Shown here: positions 13,194 to 21,124 of the stretch, one piece after another | Layout: each line of letters begins with the position of its first letter | Numbering within the stretch: position 1 is the first letter of the stretch | Assembly (NCBI GenBank): GCA_942490925.1 | Contig: CALNYX010000017.1 | Coordinates: forward strand, 888,143 to 952,142 | Origin: an uncultured Chlamydiaceae bacterium | GTDB lineage: Bacteria; Chlamydiota; Chlamydiia; Chlamydiales; JAAKFR01 | Length of the DNA stretch: 64,000 nt | Direction: 5' to 3' | Notes under the pieces: model-generated | What the model was told of the DNA's origin: nothing | Seen by the model: the letters and a program-made list of their open reading frames with translations, nothing else | Databases searched by the model: none | Position numbers and translations under genes: made by a program

Positions 13194-13550
13194 ATGAATA
13201 TTATACATGTGGCACGGATCTATCCAAAAGGTCGGCCTAAGTATCTCTTCTTAAAAAAAGAAGACTCAAAGTATTGCTGGGAAAAGACTGACTGCGAAGG
13301 AACTACGTCTGTCCAAGCGATTCGAAATGCCGAGAAGAGGTGGAAAGATGAGTTTTTTCAACTCGTCCATTGCGGATTTCGCTATTCACTCCCTACAAGA
13401 GATGAAGTTGGTGTGAACGCCAATTTCATGCAGATGGCCCAAAGCTATAGCGCTTCAAACGGACGCTACTTTGATCAAGATGCAGGCCATCTCTGTTTTG
13501 TCGATCTCGCATCCAAAGAGGCATTAGAGATTTGGAAAAAAATCCGCTGA
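13194..13550 (+). CDS. hypothetical protein (118 aa)
   Basis: ORF lies 15 nt after the uvrA stop and overlaps the pknD start by 19 nt. I recognised no family and saw no obvious SD. Confidence 0.45.
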   Translation: MNIIHVARIYPKGRPKYLFLKKEDSKYCWEKTDCEGTTSVQAIRNAEKRWKDEFFQLVHCGFRYSLPTRDEVGVNANFMQMAQSYSASNGRYFDQDAGHLCFVDLASKEALEIWKKIR

Positions 13551-16246
13551 CAACGATCGAGCACTACCAAGTGCGTAGCACTATTGGTAAAGGGGGTATG
13601 GGAGAGGTTTTGCTTGCCTACGATCCTCTTTGCGAGCGTGAGGTTGCTATCAAGCGCATTCGGCCTGATCTTACGGGCCATCAGGCGCTTGTTAAACGCT
13701 TTCATCGAGAAGCTAAAATCAGCGCAAGTCTTACCCACCCTGGCATTATCTCAGTCTACTCCATTGGCAAAGATTACTACGTCATGCCCTACGTTGCTGG
13801 CAAAACATTCAAACAAAACATCTACCAAGATCAACTCTCAATTGCTTCGCTGTTGCCAATCTTTCGCACCGTCTGTCAAACCATTGCCTATACCCATTCG
13901 AAAGGGATTTTGCACCGCGATCTCAAACCTGAGAATATTTTGGTCGGAACCTTTGGAGAGGTGATTGTCCTCGACTGGGGTCTTGCAGTTGCAATTGGCT
14001 CTGATGAAGAGGGTGTTGAAGAGATTGAGGTCGATGCTGAGATCACTAACCCTGGAAAACTCGTTGGGACAGTCGCTTATATGGCTCCGGAGCGCGCCAA
14101 AGGTGAAAAAGCTAACATTCAAACGGATGTCTATGCTCTAGGTGTCATCCTCTACCAAATCCTAACACTGCGCCTCCCCTTTGAACGCCCTCCTCTCAAA
14201 GAGTTTGTGAAGCAACTCAAACCTCGCTACATTGAAGCAACTGATCCTGAAGAAATTGCGCCCTATCGCGATGTACCCCCTCAACTCTCCCGCATCGTCA
14301 AAAAAAGCTTAGAGCCAGATCCAAAAAACCGCTACAACACTGTTGATGAACTGCTCGTTGATTTAATGGACTACCTTGAGGGACGCTCCCAATGGTTGAA
14401 AACAGCCGCTTTGAAAACTGAAGAAAAAAAACATTGGCAGTTCCAAGAACATGTTTTGATCACCAAGCACCTTGCTCTCACCGGAAGCGCAGAGGCCACA
14501 GAGTGGGTCAATGTTATGCTCTCGCGCGCCGCTTTTTCTGAAAACATTCGCTTGGAAACCCGCATTTATCTCGATGAAGGAGGCGCAGGCCTTGGCTTTC
14601 TCATCAACGTCCCTGAAGCTGCTGAGCGGAGCGATCCCTTTGATGGTTACTGCCTCTGGCTTGGAAGTGAAGAGAGTGGCGCCTCAGTTTTGTTTCGCAA
14701 CACCGTCGAAGTGCTTTCCCTTCCCGATCTCTATGTAAAAAAGGGGCAGTGGCACACCATTGTCCTTGAAAAACTCGACAATAAAATCACCCTCCTTCGC
14801 AATGGTAAAGAGGTCTTTAGCTACATCAGCTACCTTCCCCTCTCAGGTACACATGTCGGCCTACTTTCCTGCGATGCCAACTTCAAAATTGACGACCTTG
14901 TCATCAAAGTTGGCAGCCAAAACCTGACCGTCAGCTGCCTAGCAATTGCCGACGCCTTTTTAGCCCACAAAGATTTCAAAACTGCTTTTGCCCAATACCA
15001 AAGAATTGCAGAATCTTTCTCAGGCTATACTGAAGGGCGTGAAGCACGCTTCCGCGCAGGCATCACACTCCTAGAACAGGCCTCTGTTGAAAAAAATGAG
15101 CACTACTTCCAACTTGCCCTTGAAGAATTTTCTCGCCTGCATAGTACACCAGGAGCACCTCTAGAATATCTTGGCAAAGCCCTTGTCTACCAAGCACTCA
15201 AAGATCACCTCGAAGAGATCAAATCCCTAGAGCTTGGCCTGCGCCGCTACTACAAACATCCACTTGTTGCCCCGCTGCGCGAACAAATCGCTTACCGCAT
15301 GCATGAAGCGGCGCAAACAGATCGCCGTTCAGCCTACCATCTCATGCTCATAGCCTTGCGACTTTTGCCTGAGGTTGTCAAAAAAGAAGATTCGAAACGT
15401 CTATTTTCTCACCTCATCAAACATTGGGAGCCGCTTCCCTTTCTCGAAAGCCTTCTCGATCCCACCTTTGCCGATGGAAAACCCGCAGCGTCACGCTTTG
15501 CAATTCCTCTTGCCTTTTGGCTTGCTGCGCCCTACACCCTCTTAGAAATCTTCCAAGAGGTGCAAGAAGATACAACTGCTGCTCAAGATATTCTCTACTC
15601 ACTCTTTGAACTTGGATCCTATGGACTGGCACAAAAACTGATGGGAACCTTCAAAGCTGAACAACTTCAACCCCTAGCCCTCTGCCACAGCGTCTCGCTA
15701 GAAGAGGCTTGCAACAACCTCAACCCCAAACATTTTCGCATCTACAGCTACCTCATGCGCTTTGCCTTGCGCAATGACCAAGAAGAGTACGTGCACCAGC
15801 TTGCCAAAGAGTTAGAGGAGACTCCCCTCTCGAGCCAAGACCGCATCCTATGTGATGCCTACCGCATTTGGGCCTACTTGAAACAAGAAGATGCCAGCAG
15901 TGCAGGAGCAATTTTCGATACCTACCCCCTTGAGCTGCTCAACCAAGAGACAACACTGCTCCACCCACTTTTTGGCTGCTACCTCCACCTTACCGAAGGA
16001 GAAGAGATTGCCAATATCCACTTTGCAGGAGTGATTGAAACCCCATTTCCACGTTCGTGGGCACTGCTCAGCCACGAACTCACCAATCAAGTGACCCAGA
16101 CACCGGGCTGGTATAGCACCTCCTTTATGTGGGAGCGACGCCACCTCTACCGCCTCCTCACCCTCTACTACACCATTAGTGAAAATCCAGAACTCGAAGC
16201 CTACTACCGTGGGCTCGAGAGAGAAGAGTACATCTATGCTGAATAA
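13532..16246 (+). CDS. pknD: Ser/Thr protein kinase with large C-terminal non-kinase region (PknD-like)
   Basis: Hanks kinase motifs GKGGMGEV, AIK, HRDLKPENIL, DWGLA and GTVAYMAPE. The C-terminus has a beta-rich lectin-like segment followed by helical repeats. From memory, the gene is close to valS as in Chlamydia (here a Nudix gene and a small minus-strand ORF intervene). Confidence 0.9.
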   Translation: MEKNPLTTIEHYQVRSTIGKGGMGEVLLAYDPLCEREVAIKRIRPDLTGHQALVKRFHREAKISASLTHPGIISVYSIGKDYYVMPYVAGKTFKQNIYQDQLSIASLLPIFRTVCQTIAYTHSKGILHRDLKPENILVGTFGEVIVLDWGLAVAIGSDEEGVEEIEVDAEITNPGKLVGTVAYMAPERAKGEKANIQTDVYALGVILYQILTLRLPFERPPLKEFVKQLKPRYIEATDPEEIAPYRDVPPQLSRIVKKSLEPDPKNRYNTVDELLVDLMDYLEGRSQWLKTAALKTEEKKHWQFQEHVLITKHLALTGSAEATEWVNVMLSRAAFSENIRLETRIYLDEGGAGLGFLINVPEAAERSDPFDGYCLWLGSEESGASVLFRNTVEVLSLPDLYVKKGQWHTIVLEKLDNKITLLRNGKEVFSYISYLPLSGTHVGLLSCDANFKIDDLVIKVGSQNLTVSCLAIADAFLAHKDFKTAFAQYQRIAESFSGYTEGREARFRAGITLLEQASVEKNEHYFQLALEEFSRLHSTPGAPLEYLGKALVYQALKDHLEEIKSLELGLRRYYKHPLVAPLREQIAYRMHEAAQTDRRSAYHLMLIALRLLPEVVKKEDSKRLFSHLIKHWEPLPFLESLLDPTFADGKPAASRFAIPLAFWLAAPYTLLEIFQEVQEDTTAAQDILYSLFELGSYGLAQKLMGTFKAEQLQPLALCHSVSLEEACNNLNPKHFRIYSYLMRFALRNDQEEYVHQLAKELEETPLSSQDRILCDAYRIWAYLKQEDASSAGAIFDTYPLELLNQETTLLHPLFGCYLHLTEGEEIANIHFAGVIETPFPRSWALLSHELTNQVTQTPGWYSTSFMWERRHLYRLLTLYYTISENPELEAYYRGLEREEYIYAE

Positions 16247-16769
16247 TCTCCCTGTTGTCCAAGATACAGAAACCATTCACACAGGCTTTTTCAATATCCG
16301 CTGTGATCGTCTACGTATCCGCGGCAAGGATGAGTATGACTACTTCACCCTTGTGGCACGTCCCTTTGCAGTCATGGTGCTTGCCACTACACCTGAGGGG
16401 AAATACGTCATCAACCGTGAATATCGCCATCCAGTTAATCAGATCCTTCTTAGTTGTCCTGGAGGCGTCTTAGATGATGGTGAAGCGCCCCTTGATTGCG
16501 CTGCAAGAGAACTTGCTGAAGAGACTGGTTATAGCGCTGAGCATTTTGAAATTCTTGGAGAGACATTTCCTTTTCCAGGTGTCACCAATCAAAAGAGCAT
16601 CTTTGTACGCGCGACAAATGCCAAGAAAACAGGAGAAACCTCCCTTGAATATACTGAGTTTATCGAAACAGATCTCTATACCAAAGAGGAAATCTGGAAG
16701 AAGATCCATGCTGGAGAGCCAACTGATGGCATCTTATGCACCGCCCTTTTCCTCGATCAAGCTAAATAA
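16236..16769 (+). CDS. NUDIX hydrolase (ADP-ribose pyrophosphatase-like)
   Basis: Nudix box GGVLDDGEAPLDCAARELAEETGY. I place the start at ATG 16236 (MLNNLPVV...), which overlaps the pknD stop by 11 nt. The track ORF extends to 16179, inside pknD. Confidence 0.85.
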   Translation: MLNNLPVVQDTETIHTGFFNIRCDRLRIRGKDEYDYFTLVARPFAVMVLATTPEGKYVINREYRHPVNQILLSCPGGVLDDGEAPLDCAARELAEETGYSAEHFEILGETFPFPGVTNQKSIFVRATNAKKTGETSLEYTEFIETDLYTKEEIWKKIHAGEPTDGILCTALFLDQAK

Positions 16770-17134
16770 GTCTCGTCGAGATTCGTCCATTTAAACAGCA
16801 AAGCAATCCCCATGAAGAGTGATGCAACAACAAGAGTAATACGATCCCACTCCACCTTCTGACGATCTTGCGCAATAATACGCACCCCTTCAAGAGCTGC
16901 TCTCGAAACTAGAGGCGCGTACAAAAAAGCAAAAGTTATGTACATCAAACGATTCTCCTGGGAGCAAAAGGCCGCCAAAGGGATCCATATAAATTGGTTT
17001 ACACCGTAAGCAAGACGGATCCCAAATCTATGCTCTCTCCAGTAAGGGAGCGCACTCCGCCGTATTTCGATTCGATTACGGCAATTCCTTTTCAAGAGTT
17101 TCTTTATGATATGCCTCAAATTTTGAAAGGACAT
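16757..17134 (-). CDS. hypothetical small membrane protein
   Basis: 125-aa ORF with 2-3 hydrophobic segments (IWIPLAAF, MYITFAFLYAPLV, LVVASLFMGIALLF). No family recognised. Its 3' end overlaps the Nudix 3' end by 13 nt. Confidence 0.4.
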   Translation of the reverse strand: MSFQNLRHIIKKLLKRNCRNRIEIRRSALPYWREHRFGIRLAYGVNQFIWIPLAAFCSQENRLMYITFAFLYAPLVSRAALEGVRIIAQDRQKVEWDRITLVVASLFMGIALLFKWTNLDETYLA

Positions 17135-17166
17135 TAATCTCTTCTTGAGCTATCCTTTCCTCCTCT

Positions 17167-20100
17167 ATGGAAGAACTACCCAAAGCTTACGATCCTAAGC
17201 TCACCGATGTCAAATGGTCCCAATTTTGGGAAGAGAATGGCTTTTTTAAAGTCGACCCCACATCTGACAAACCAGCCTACTCAATTGTCATTCCCCCTCC
17301 TAATGTCACAGGTGTGCTCCATATGGGACACGCTCTTGTCAACACCCTTCAAGACATTCTGATCCGCTGGAAAAGGATGAGTGGCTACGAAGCATTGTGG
17401 ATGCCAGGAACCGACCATGCCGGCATTGCCACACAGACTGTTGTTGAACGTCATCTGATGCAGAGTGAAGGAAAAAGACGGAGCGACTACGATCGAGAGG
17501 TTTTTCTCAAACATATCTGGGATTGGAAAGAGAAGAGCGAAACAACGATCCTCAAACAGCTCAAAAGTCTCGGTTGCTCATGTGATTGGTCAAGACTCCG
17601 TTTTACCCTGGATGATGGCTGCAGCCTAGCTGTTCGCACCATGTTCAAAAAACTTTTTGATGAAGGGCTGATCTACCGTGGCGACTACCTTGTCAACTGG
17701 GATCCAGTCACTCAAACAGCCCTTGCTGATGATGAAGTCGAATACGAAGAGCGTGAGAGTTATCTCTGGTATTTCAAATACCATCTCGTCGATGGCTCTG
17801 GCTATGTGCATATTGCCACGACACGCCCAGAAACCCTTCTTGGTGATACAGCCATCGCCGTCTCCCCCAAAGATGAGCGTTACAAGCATTTGATCAACAA
17901 AAAAGTGCGCGTTCCATTTGTCGATCGCGAAATTCCCATCATTGCTGACCCCTACGTCGACCCTGAGTTTGGAACAGGCATGGTCAAGATCACTCCTGCC
18001 CACGATCCAAATGACTACAAGATTGGTCTCAATCACAATCTGCCCATGATCAATGTGATGACAACTGATGGGCGCATGAATGAGAATGCTGGCCCCTTCC
18101 ATGAAATGAGCCGTGAAGAGGCAAGGGAAGCTGTTGTTCACCAGATGAAAGAGCTTGGGCTGCTTGATAAAACAGAGCGCTACAGCTTGCGCGTTGGGAT
18201 CTCCTACCGCTCTAAAGCAATTATTGAACCCCTTCTCTCTAAGCAGTGGTTTGTCAAGATGGAGTCGTTCAAAGAGAAGCTTAGAGCAGCTGTCAATGAT
18301 GAGCGGGTCAAGATTCTGCCACCCTCTTGGAAACAGACCTATTTCCACTGGATCGATAACCTGCGTGACTGGTGCATCAGTCGACAACTTTGGTGGGGAC
18401 ATCGCATCCCCGTTTGGTACAACAAAGAAGATCCAACGCAGATGCGTTGCTCCACAGAAGAGATCGATGATGAAATGTGGGAGCAAGATCCTGACGTACT
18501 CGACACCTGGTTCTCTTCAGCCCTATGGCCCTTTAGCACCATGGGCTGGCCCAACAAAACTCCTGAGCTTAAAAAGTTCTATCCCAACAGCGTGCTTGTC
18601 ACTGGACATGACATCCTCTTTTTCTGGGTAGCACGCATGATTGCAATGGGAGAGCACGCGCTTGACAAAGTTCCTTTCCCTGAAACTTTCCTCCATGGCC
18701 TCATCTATGGCCGCTCCTACTGGAGAAATAATAGCGATGGAAGTATCACCTACGTCGCTGGCGAGGAGAAAAAGCAATATGATCTTGGCAAACAACCTCC
18801 AAAAGAGGTGCACTCCAAGTGGGAAAAACTCTCCAAGTCAAAAGGCAATGTCATTGATCCTCTCGAGCTCATCGACGAGTATGGCACCGATGCTGTGCGC
18901 ATGTCCCTCTGCGCCTGTGCCAACCAGTCTCCACAAATCGACCTCGATCGCAGACGGTTTGACGAATTTAAAAACTTCGCTAACAAAGTGTGGAATGGTG
19001 CCCGTTTTGTCTTCATGAACCTCTCTGACCTGACAGACAGCGAGCTCGACCAAAACTTTGAGCTTGCACTTGAAGACAAATGGATCCTCTCTGCAATGGG
19101 ACGCGTCAATCGGCAAGTCAATGAGAGCCTCTCCAACTACCACTTTGATCAAGCTGCTCAACTCTCCTACGACTTTTTCTGGAAAGAGTTTTGCGCCTAC
19201 TACGTTGAATTTTCTAAACCGATCCTCTTTGGTGACGACAAAACAGCTCGCAAAAACAAACAGAAAATCCTTGCTACTGTGCTGAGCAATAGCATCCGTC
19301 TTCTACACCCGATGGCACCCTTTATCACAGAAGAGCTCTACCAACTGCTTAAAAAGCAGTTTCCCTCTCTTCTTCCTGAGCCAGCTTGCATTGTTGCCCC
19401 CTACCCACAAGCATTGCCAGAGGATGAAGCAATCCATGAGCAGTTTGCGCACATTGAGAAAGTGATCTACACCATCCGAAACATCCGCGGCGAGATGAAA
19501 ATTCCTCCACATATCGCTACAGATGTCTATCTCATTGGCAATTTCCCGCAAGAGCAGACCAGACTCATCGGCGCACTTGTCAAGACAACCCAAATCATTT
19601 GCACCGACAAAGCTCCAGAGTTTCCGCTCAGTGCAACAGGCGTTGTCGGAGAGCTTACCATTCTCATTCCACTCCCTCAGGAACTTGCTGATAAAGAGAA
19701 GCAGCGGCTTGAGAAAGAACGCGAGAAGCTTGAAAATAGCCTCGCTCGCCTCAAACAGTTGCTCGACAACCAGGACTTTCTTGCCAAGGCAGCTCCTGAG
19801 TTGATTGAGAAGAAAAAAAGCGAGCTGAGCTCCACTCAAAATGAACTCAACAGCTTGAATGCTAAATTAGTTGTGAATAAATACACCTTCAAACCCTACA
19901 ACGCTCAATACCCCCACTTGTTTGCTGTAGAAAAATCTCGTCTTACTGAACATATCCAAGCCGACATTCAACATGTTGGCAGCACAGCAGTTCCGAACCT
20001 AGGCGGAAAAGGAATTATTGATATTGCCATAGCAACCGAGAGTATTGAAGAAACCTCAAAGCAACTAGAGATGTTGGGATATGAATTTCATAAAAATGGG

Positions 20101-20343
20101 AGTACAGCTGAGCGGTTATTTTTCCGCAAAGGACACGAGTATCACATCCATTTGATGCACCCTAACAGTCAAGAGTTAAAAGATCTGATTATTTTCAGAG
20201 ATTTGCTCAAAGCAGATCTAGAAGTTATGCAGCAATATGCTGAGATCAAAAAACGCGCAAATGGGAATAAAACGCTCTATCGAGAACTTAAAAAGCAGTT
20301 GATTGAGCCTACCCTTTCCTTCTGGAGAAGGAAAGCACCATGA
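17167..20343 (+). CDS. valS: valine--tRNA ligase fused in frame to a C-terminal GrpB-family domain
   Basis: Class I HIGH (HMGHA) and KMSKS-like (KLSKSKGN) motifs, a ValRS editing/CP1 region and a C-terminal coiled coil ending ...LNSLNAKL. About 158 aa of GrpB-like sequence follow with no stop (HVGSTAVPNLGGKGIIDIAI, HIHLM, FRDLLKAD). Confidence 0.9.
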   Translation: MEELPKAYDPKLTDVKWSQFWEENGFFKVDPTSDKPAYSIVIPPPNVTGVLHMGHALVNTLQDILIRWKRMSGYEALWMPGTDHAGIATQTVVERHLMQSEGKRRSDYDREVFLKHIWDWKEKSETTILKQLKSLGCSCDWSRLRFTLDDGCSLAVRTMFKKLFDEGLIYRGDYLVNWDPVTQTALADDEVEYEERESYLWYFKYHLVDGSGYVHIATTRPETLLGDTAIAVSPKDERYKHLINKKVRVPFVDREIPIIADPYVDPEFGTGMVKITPAHDPNDYKIGLNHNLPMINVMTTDGRMNENAGPFHEMSREEAREAVVHQMKELGLLDKTERYSLRVGISYRSKAIIEPLLSKQWFVKMESFKEKLRAAVNDERVKILPPSWKQTYFHWIDNLRDWCISRQLWWGHRIPVWYNKEDPTQMRCSTEEIDDEMWEQDPDVLDTWFSSALWPFSTMGWPNKTPELKKFYPNSVLVTGHDILFFWVARMIAMGEHALDKVPFPETFLHGLIYGRSYWRNNSDGSITYVAGEEKKQYDLGKQPPKEVHSKWEKLSKSKGNVIDPLELIDEYGTDAVRMSLCACANQSPQIDLDRRRFDEFKNFANKVWNGARFVFMNLSDLTDSELDQNFELALEDKWILSAMGRVNRQVNESLSNYHFDQAAQLSYDFFWKEFCAYYVEFSKPILFGDDKTARKNKQKILATVLSNSIRLLHPMAPFITEELYQLLKKQFPSLLPEPACIVAPYPQALPEDEAIHEQFAHIEKVIYTIRNIRGEMKIPPHIATDVYLIGNFPQEQTRLIGALVKTTQIICTDKAPEFPLSATGVVGELTILIPLPQELADKEKQRLEKEREKLENSLARLKQLLDNQDFLAKAAPELIEKKKSELSSTQNELNSLNAKLVVNKYTFKPYNAQYPHLFAVEKSRLTEHIQADIQHVGSTAVPNLGGKGIIDIAIATESIEETSKQLEMLGYEFHKNGSTAERLFFRKGHEYHIHLMHPNSQELKDLIIFRDLLKADLEVMQQYAEIKKRANGNKTLYRELKKQLIEPTLSFWRRKAP

Positions 20344-20585
20344 AATACATTCTTCTCATACTTGCCAGTTCCATCTGTATTGTTGGCTACGCCCTCTACT
20401 ACTACGGATTTTCTGCCAAGCGTGGCCAACCAATTCTCTACCTTGAAGACCTCTATGTAAAACCCAACTATCGTGGAGAGGGAATTGGCTGGCACGTCTT
20501 TGACTGGAATGAGAAAGCGAAAGCCTTTTATAAAAGCTTAGGAGCCTATATGAGAGAAGACTTAATACAAGTGAGGTGGGAGTGA
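20340..20585 (+). pseudogene. GNAT N-acetyltransferase remnant (N-terminally truncated, internal deletion)
   Basis: It retains only IVGYALYYYGFS..RGQPILYLEDLYVKPNYRGEGIG (beta4 and the acetyl-CoA loop), joined directly to W.VFDWNEKAKAFYKSLGA (the C-terminal motif). About 60 N-terminal and about 20-25 internal residues of a normal GNAT are missing. Confidence 0.55.
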
Positions 20586-21124
20586 TGCGTTGTTTTGGAA
20601 ACGAATCCGAGCTCTATGCGCGCTACCATGATGAGGAGTGGGCTATCCCCTCTCATGATGACAACTACCTCTTTGAAATGCTCATCCTAGAAGGTGTACA
20701 AGCAGGCCTAAGCTGGGAAATTGTACTTAAGCGGCGCGAAGCCTATCGCAAAGCCTACCACAATTTTGATCCAAAAAAAGTTGCGCAGATGAGCGATGAG
20801 CAATTAGAAGCCCTCCTGCAAGATCCAGCATTGATACGTAATCGCAGAAAGATCTTTGGTGCAAGGCAAAATGCCCAGGTCTTTTTGGAAATGCAAAAGG
20901 AATTTGGCTCATTTGATGCCTACATCTGGAAGTTTGTCGACGATAAGCCAATTGTGAATCGATGGAGGCAAAAAAAAGATGTCCCAACAGAGACATCTAT
21001 TAGCCAAGCAATTTCTAAGGATTTGAAAAAACGTGGGATGACATTTGTCGGTCCCACGATTCTATATGCCTACATGCAAGCTGTTGGGATGGTCAATGAC
21101 CACCTCATCTCTTGCAATCAGTAA
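20585..21124 (+). CDS. tag: DNA-3-methyladenine glycosylase I
   Basis: MRCFGNE..YARYHDEEWAIP..DDNYLFEMLILEGVQAGLSW..VLKRREAYRKAY matches the Tag family throughout. The track ORF starts 9 nt earlier (20576). Confidence 0.9.
   Translation: MRCFGNESELYARYHDEEWAIPSHDDNYLFEMLILEGVQAGLSWEIVLKRREAYRKAYHNFDPKKVAQMSDEQLEALLQDPALIRNRRKIFGARQNAQVFLEMQKEFGSFDAYIWKFVDDKPIVNRWRQKKDVPTETSISQAISKDLKKRGMTFVGPTILYAYMQAVGMVNDHLISCNQ

Follow-up and report, generated by a model that had tools for sequence, protein, structure and literature searches.

An in-frame union of valyl-tRNA synthetase and a GrpB-family domain in an uncultured Chlamydiaceae bacterium, probably a lineage-specific fusion to a decaying accessory cassette

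Why should the gene for an essential synthetase run on, without a stop codon, into a complete domain of another protein family? The question is raised by a 64,000-nucleotide stretch of the genome of an uncultured Chlamydiaceae bacterium (contig CALNYX010000017.1, positions 888,143 to 952,142), hereafter the window, to which all coordinates below refer. On its plus strand, a single uninterrupted open reading frame (ORF; 17167..20343) encodes 1,058 amino acids (aa): a complete valyl-tRNA synthetase (ValRS), one GTT linker codon and a full domain of the GrpB family. An earlier note on this DNA had described the stop-free frame and the junction exactly as we found them and had offered three explanations, a recent gene fusion, a read-through product, or a sequencing or assembly error. 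A fusion fits the evidence; read-through does not apply to a frame that holds no stop codon, and an error is opposed by two assemblies that agree at the junction. We consider it probable that the locus is a real, lineage-specific translational fusion of valS to a decaying GrpB–GNAT cassette, in which GrpB is a passenger.

The ValRS portion (aa 1–901; 17167..19869, plus strand) is complete through its C-terminal tRNA-binding coiled coil. On the NCBIfam ValRS equivalog NF004349 it scored 1145.6 bits, the cut-off being 704 (aa 6–900, model positions 2–859 of 860), and on the valine–tRNA ligase model TIGR00422 1007.5 bits (cut-off 612.1); its Pfam domains were tRNA-synt_1, Anticodon_1 (PF08264, aa 637–787) and Val_tRNA-synt_C (PF10458, aa 842–901). 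The catalytic HIGH and KMSKS motifs read HMGHA and KLSKS in the translation, the KLSKS variant matching that of the orthologs, and the portion is 57–71% identical to Chlamydiae ValRS. Its PF10458 region is the C-terminal coiled-coil arm (19690..19869, plus strand), the second helix of which stops at Leu901. No second valS was found in the 64-kb window, and the ValRS part is intact and presumably functional.

The GrpB module (PF04229, nucleotidyltransferase fold) occupies 19873..20343 on the plus strand and consists of 156 aa (residues 903–1058) followed by TGA. The earlier note had rightly called it a complete domain, the GrpB profile match that it had asked for within aa 900–1058 was obtained, and the motifs that it quoted, HVGSTAVPNLGGKGIIDIAI, YHIHLM, FRDLLKAD and YAEIKKR, are all present; its length of about 158 aa is corrected here to 156, counted from the GTG codon, and the leucine before the junction is residue 901. 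In the fused protein, PF04229 scored 106 bits (E-value 2.9e-30; cut-off 25.5) over aa 909–1047 and positions 5–154 of the 159 in the profile, and the module alone gave 7.5e-32 and 111 bits against the same cut-off. Its sequence matched the solved Enterococcus faecalis GrpB (PDB 2nrk) with an E-value of 3e-12. In an AlphaFold2 model of aa 831–1058, the predicted local distance difference test (pLDDT) score averaged 90 overall and reached 94–98 over the GrpB domain. A Foldseek search with this model returned 2nrk as the top PDB match (E-value 1.6e-9; TM-score, normalised to the target, 0.72), with the CoaE–GrpB structure 6n39 next and terminal uridylyltransferases and LnuA after it.

How the two parts came to be joined is suggested by the junction itself, which at 19861–19881 is gct aaa TTA gtt GTG aat aaa and which would contribute the peptide ...LNAKLVVNKYTFK... 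to the fused chain. It had been proposed that a single T-to-A change in the TTA codon would create a stop with a GTG start three bases further on. This is literally true, but the reverse change, TAA to TTA, we reject as the origin of the fusion: TTA (19867..19869, plus strand) is not a mutated stop because it encodes Leu901, the last conserved residue of the ValRS tail. Among the 119 closest ValRS proteins (all from Chlamydiae, at most 70% identical, query excluded), this column holds leucine in 93 and isoleucine in 19, together 112 sequences or 94%, and the preceding column holds lysine or arginine in 115. Beyond Leu901, one ortholog has no residues at all and the rest have 1–9, usually 3–5, with a single outlier of 17. 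Orthologous tails are thus 0–9 aa longer than Leu901, and therefore there is no linker and the native stop is missing, as are the rest of the native tail and the spacer. The original valS stop most likely lay further downstream and would have been lost by deletion.

On the other side of the junction, the alignment places the GTG codon (19873..19875, plus strand) at the start-methionine column of stand-alone GrpB proteins, identifying it as the putative former grpB start: the window reads V-NKYTFKPYN where 24 stand-alone GrpB proteins, that of locus L014 among them, read MKKYVFKPYN. The only codon between the ValRS tail and this start column, as judged from the sequence and the GrpB alignment, is GTT (Val902; 19870..19872, plus strand). 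In the structure model, the two helices of the coiled-coil arm span aa 838–867 and 877–901 (residues 8–37 and 47–71 of the modeled construct), and the GrpB domain follows after a nonhelical junction of about seven residues with a pLDDT of about 72. Some 50 nt ahead of the junction lies a run of seven A residues (19814–19820); a slip or an indel of one base in either direction there would give a ValRS without GrpB, with its last ~15 residues altered.

We then asked how widely the arrangement occurs, using the 119 ValRS proteins, 80 related genome loci with valS, and 80 metagenomic loci of this GrpB subfamily. PF04229 was found in none of the 119 proteins, and none of the 80 valS loci carried a GrpB fused to valS. 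A search with aa 701–1058 found no protein matching both halves among 1.84 billion representative sequences, a set in which clustering at 50% may hide such proteins. A search of a 5.8-billion protein set with GrpB alone proved unusable for excluding fusions, as it returned only stand-alone proteins and was biased against long targets; it missed the query's own 1,058-aa protein and the GrpB fusions of 326–620 aa that the search of representatives had found.

The usual company of GrpB, as judged from the metagenomic loci and from the long GrpB relatives that the search of representatives returned, is of another kind. In the 80 metagenomic loci, GrpB was fused to another domain in 15, the partner being a GNAT acetyltransferase in at least 8, a P-loop kinase in 4 and an APH kinase in 3; RibD_C and tandem GrpB also occurred among the fusions, and an aminoacyl-tRNA synthetase in none of the 15. 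Immediately downstream of grpB, a GNAT gene was found in at least 10 of the 50 cases; as the upstream neighbor it was found in at least 9 of 48, and chloramphenicol-phosphotransferase-like (CPT-like), APH and P-loop kinases recurred as neighbors. The closest stand-alone grpB genes were found in varied settings, with a GNAT just downstream in two of four. None of the 80 GrpB loci contained valS, and the two synthetase genes seen near them, one of class I and the other of class II, are about what chance would give. The suggestion that GrpB is not a usual appendage of synthetases was thereby borne out, both by these fusions and loci and by the lack of GrpB in the 119 proteins and 80 loci related to this ValRS. 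From its partners, GrpB looks like a member of small-molecule-modifying cassettes and not of the translation machinery. An AadA-like nucleotidyltransferase was also present among the GrpB-linked enzymes (sets L087–L166, L085 and P0254–P0363).

The window itself retains traces of such a cassette, which the earlier note had overlooked along with the lineage-specific block that contains it. Directly behind the fusion, with its ATG overlapping the TGA (ATGA) and with a Shine–Dalgarno-like GGAGAAGGA upstream, lies an 81-aa ORF (20340..20585, plus strand) with partial Pfam GNAT matches. An intact GNAT of 178 aa that adjoins grpB in another locus (L116:2658–3191) shares 45% identity with this ORF, which by comparison lacks the first ~80 aa and a further 20 aa after the RGxGIG loop; by this alignment the ORF is the remnant of a GNAT gene. 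The order of GrpB followed by GNAT is the usual pairing of the family. The GNAT that follows grpB in locus L085 was rejected as an ortholog of the window fragment (E-value 0.87), the two being linked at the superfamily level only.

Last in the block comes tag, encoding a 3-methyladenine DNA glycosylase (20576..21124, plus strand; PF03352, E-value 5.7e-80). In the seven closest relatives, the gene order is a pknD-like gene, valS, agcS on the minus strand and a gene for DAHP synthase, and the gap between valS and agcS measures 290–770 nt, compared with 1368 nt in the window, where it carries grpB, the GNAT remnant and tag. The tag gene is missing from this spacer in all seven, and it stands directly upstream of valS in two Chlamydiae metagenome-assembled genomes (L040, 1278–1820; L049, 9359–9901); the sequence on either side of valS seems to be a place where small accessory genes vary. 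Together, the GNAT remnant and the lineage-specific valS–agcS block point to a decaying accessory cassette.

These observations are consistent with the following history. An accessory block of grpB, a GNAT gene and tag lies directly 3′ of valS, and the stop of valS, its final few tail codons and the spacer behind them would have been lost, most simply by one in-frame deletion, leaving Leu901, one valine codon and the former GTG start of grpB in a row. The product would be a ValRS of about 120 kDa bearing a GrpB domain on a nonhelical junction of about seven residues, off the second helix of the coiled coil. The ValRS part would do the essential work, and GrpB, coming from a decaying small-molecule-modifying GrpB–GNAT cassette, would be tolerated rather than selected, with no new synthetase domain having arisen.

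Signs of decay are also seen in the GrpB module. Two deletions, of 8 aa at 20127/20128 and of 4 aa at 20256/20257, are unique to the window GrpB: the first removes the DLPDxEE loop, near-invariant in the subfamily, in front of the YHxH strand, and the second removes an AAxE segment. The loop is also missing from the distant member 2nrk and so defines the subfamily, not the family. Of 56 columns conserved in at least 90% of sequences, the module breaks with the consensus at 9; the 81 homologs average 1.8, and no more than 4 of them reach 9. In the same test, the ValRS part departed at 19 of 411 columns against a mean of 8.6, a 2.2-fold excess, and 8 of 119 orthologs reached 19. By this measure the lineage is fast-evolving overall, with GrpB changing roughly twice as fast again as ValRS. 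Identity of the module to stand-alone GrpB proteins of Chlamydiae and of the Planctomycetes–Verrucomicrobia–Chlamydiae type is 44–56%. Its GC content at third codon positions (0.40) is below that of all chunks of valS (0.48–0.58) and near that of the DAHP synthase gene (0.41) and the nudix gene (0.43) of the window.

Several observations nevertheless weigh against the idea of a passenger, or against the confidence with which it can be held. All 32 columns invariant in a 25-sequence alignment are kept in the module, the retained residues including HVGS, K948, D952, H993 and H995 and the motifs GGKG, IID, YHxH and FRD; having no internal stop and a confidently predicted fold, GrpB may be active. 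One related genome, the metagenome-assembled genome SZAS-12 (locus L014), carries a stand-alone grpB of 171 aa, on the valS strand and 218 nt upstream of that gene (L014:10007–13578). This is the only other adjacency of grpB and valS, seen in 1 of the 80 valS loci and in none of the rest of the 160 loci examined, and it hints at a nonrandom link between the two genes; the comparison of valS between related genomes that the earlier note had called for thus yielded no fusion in any of the 80 and one genome in which the two are neighboring but separate genes. In actinobacteria, GrpB is stably fused to the housekeeping enzyme CoaE, and a folding role has been reported for the GrpB domain there (PMC2765170), a precedent for a functional fusion. 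The nearest genome in the collections is only ~70% identical in ValRS, too distant to date the fusion or to gauge selection on it. With respect to the reality of the frame, the two assemblies compared below may rest on the same reads.

The taxonomic labels of L014 and five other metagenome-assembled genomes (L002, L019, L028, L072 and L081) look unreliable. They are given as Chlamydia trachomatis, Verrucomicrobia, Acidobacteria or Gammaproteobacteria, while their valS loci are 57–71% identical to this ValRS, which is of the environmental Chlamydiae type, and L014 shares the flanking gene order.

Could the fusion then be a functional, bifunctional protein in which GrpB was kept because its tethering to ValRS is useful? 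GrpB might serve as a folding or solubility helper, as UPF0157 does for mycobacterial CoaE, or as a nucleotidyltransferase whose substrate is an inhibitor directed against ValRS or the tRNA that the coiled-coil arm holds. Such a reading would account for a frame that has stayed open through 156 codons, for the retained invariant residues and confident fold, and for the second Chlamydiae genome in which a grpB on the same strand lies directly upstream of valS. It has precedents in CoaE–GrpB (NF002879, PDB 6n39), in the enzyme domains appended to the synthetases of reduced genomes (PMC7694997, PMC13215547) and in the isoleucyl-tRNA synthetase (IleRS) with a GNAT domain for which an NCBIfam model exists (NF040702). 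Set against these are the occurrence of the fusion in one genome only and the lack of valS from all 80 GrpB loci and of synthetases from all 15 GrpB fusions. The GrpB of L014, moreover, is not the closest relative of the window GrpB (49% identity, compared with up to 56%) and stands on the other side of valS. The partner GNAT is wrecked, and GrpB itself has lost the near-invariant loop of its subfamily and shows raised divergence. On balance, we regard a selected bifunctional protein as doubtful, and prefer a fusion with GrpB as passenger. As to what GrpB could do in either case, the literature searched offers only a structural-genomics entry and the CoaE–UPF0157 folding study, and no established activity for any GrpB.

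A second alternative is that the join is an artefact or a rare population variant, the real valS stop lying in or next to 19861–19875 and GrpB beginning at the GTG, as two separate genes. It would take little to separate them: one substitution (TTA to TAA) would suffice, or an indel of one base, given the out-of-frame stops TAA at 19863, TAG at 19868 and TGA at 19874. The exact 1,058-aa protein is, however, on record twice, in a 1.8-Mb contig of the NCBI genome and in a Logan assembly of the sequencing run ERR9669565. The 5.4-kb Logan contig aligned to window positions 14984–20423 with zero mismatches and a single gap, and the two assemblies agree base for base across the ValRS–GrpB junction, where the longest run of a single base is three. 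Their sole difference is a homopolymer read as CCC or CC at 15438–15440, ~4.4 kb upstream of the junction, and from this one-base difference it follows that the assemblies are not copies of each other; by the same token, either at least one of them is in error or the population sequenced is polymorphic. In-frame ValRS homology reaches Leu901 and GrpB homology starts in the same frame at the GTG, which leaves three bases in which an error could hide, and a stop at 19867–19869 would remove a leucine conserved, as leucine or isoleucine, in 94% of the orthologs. An exact-DNA search of the Joint Genome Institute (JGI) metagenomes with the junction, allowing any base at 19868, gave no match and hence no population evidence for either TTA or TAA. 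A sequencing error at the junction is unlikely, and we hold an artefact or rare variant to be improbable.

The homopolymer that differs between the assemblies lies in a pknD-like kinase gene (13532–16246, 904 aa), which is intact in the window and frameshifted into pieces of 186 and 228 aa in the Logan assembly; one of the two assemblies is in error here, or the site is polymorphic.

A third possibility, compatible with the fusion account, is that internal initiation at GTG 19873 yields free GrpB besides the fused chain, in which case the fusion would have little functional consequence for GrpB. The codon occupies the ancestral start position. The 25 nt upstream contain no Shine–Dalgarno-like motif, which does not exclude initiation, as most of the starts checked in the window lack one. 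A scan for promoters and terminators was at chance level, with six promoter-like matches against 5.3 expected, and the only match near the GTG, at 19709–19737, falls within that chance number. Ribosomes translating valS would, in addition, normally occlude an internal start. We give dual expression only a slim chance. The start of valS itself, at 17167, also lacks a Shine–Dalgarno-like motif and has cctcct upstream instead. The spacer between nudix and valS is filled by a 125-aa minus-strand ORF (16757–17134), which matched nothing in the related loci; gene calling on the Logan contig placed no more than a 62-aa gene in this spacer.

Least credible of all, and in our view very improbable, is that ValRS–GrpB is a working bifunctional protein, in which a GrpB-type nucleotidyltransferase is tethered by design to the arm with which ValRS binds tRNA. 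If true, the domain might act on tRNA-Val or nucleotidylate an inhibitor that targets ValRS, the L014 adjacency would be a real functional link, and the uncharacterised GrpB family would gain its first physiological context.

Provided that the fusion is real and is expressed, it shows an essential synthetase tolerating an enzyme domain of 156 residues, with almost no linker, at the end of its tRNA-binding coiled coil, and the locus is a natural example of a gene fusion arising in a shrinking intracellular genome. Should GrpB be only a passenger, as we think most likely, the fusion is mainly an annotation curiosity. The pattern of partners may be the more useful result, GrpB being a widespread family of unknown function whose consistent link to GNAT acetyltransferases and to APH and CPT-like kinases suggests the modification of small molecules (antibiotics or xenobiotics) as a testable role.

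Among the closest known systems is CoaE–GrpB (UPF0157; Mycobacterium tuberculosis Rv1631, PDB 6n39), in which GrpB is likewise appended C-terminally to an essential housekeeping enzyme; the window GrpB matched NF002879, the NCBIfam model for CoaE, over its GrpB part, and the structure model matched 6n39. In that system, however, the N-terminal partner is a dephospho-CoA kinase and not an aminoacyl-tRNA synthetase, and the fusion is conserved enough to have an equivalog model of its own, whereas ValRS–GrpB is known from one genome. With the stand-alone GrpB/UPF0157 proteins (E. faecalis EF_0920, PDB 2nrk) and the GrpB–GNAT and GrpB–APH fusions, the window GrpB shares the domain, the invariant residues and the fold and, as in many grpB genes, a GNAT directly after it, although here a degraded one. 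Unlike the stand-alone proteins, it stands behind a 901-aa synthetase with no start-codon context of its own, and unlike its subfamily, it lacks the DLPDxEE loop and the 4-aa segment.

The nearest parallels on the synthetase side are the Mycoplasma penetrans methionyl-tRNA synthetase (MetRS), with an N-terminal aminotransferase and a putative nucleotidyltransferase, which is among the enzyme domains described as appended to synthetases (PMC7694997, PMC13215547), and the IleRS–GNAT fusion (NF040702). In both, as in ValRS–GrpB, a class I synthetase from a genome that is host-associated or reduced carries an enzyme domain unrelated to it. The synthetases and the added folds are different ones, and in MetRS it is the amino-acid substrate that the addition provides, whereas ValRS–GrpB shows no evident functional link and its extra domain would come from a decaying cassette. 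The combination of ValRS with GrpB is new as far as our searches reach; a synthetase fused, in a host-associated bacterium, to the product of a neighboring gene is a familiar kind of object.

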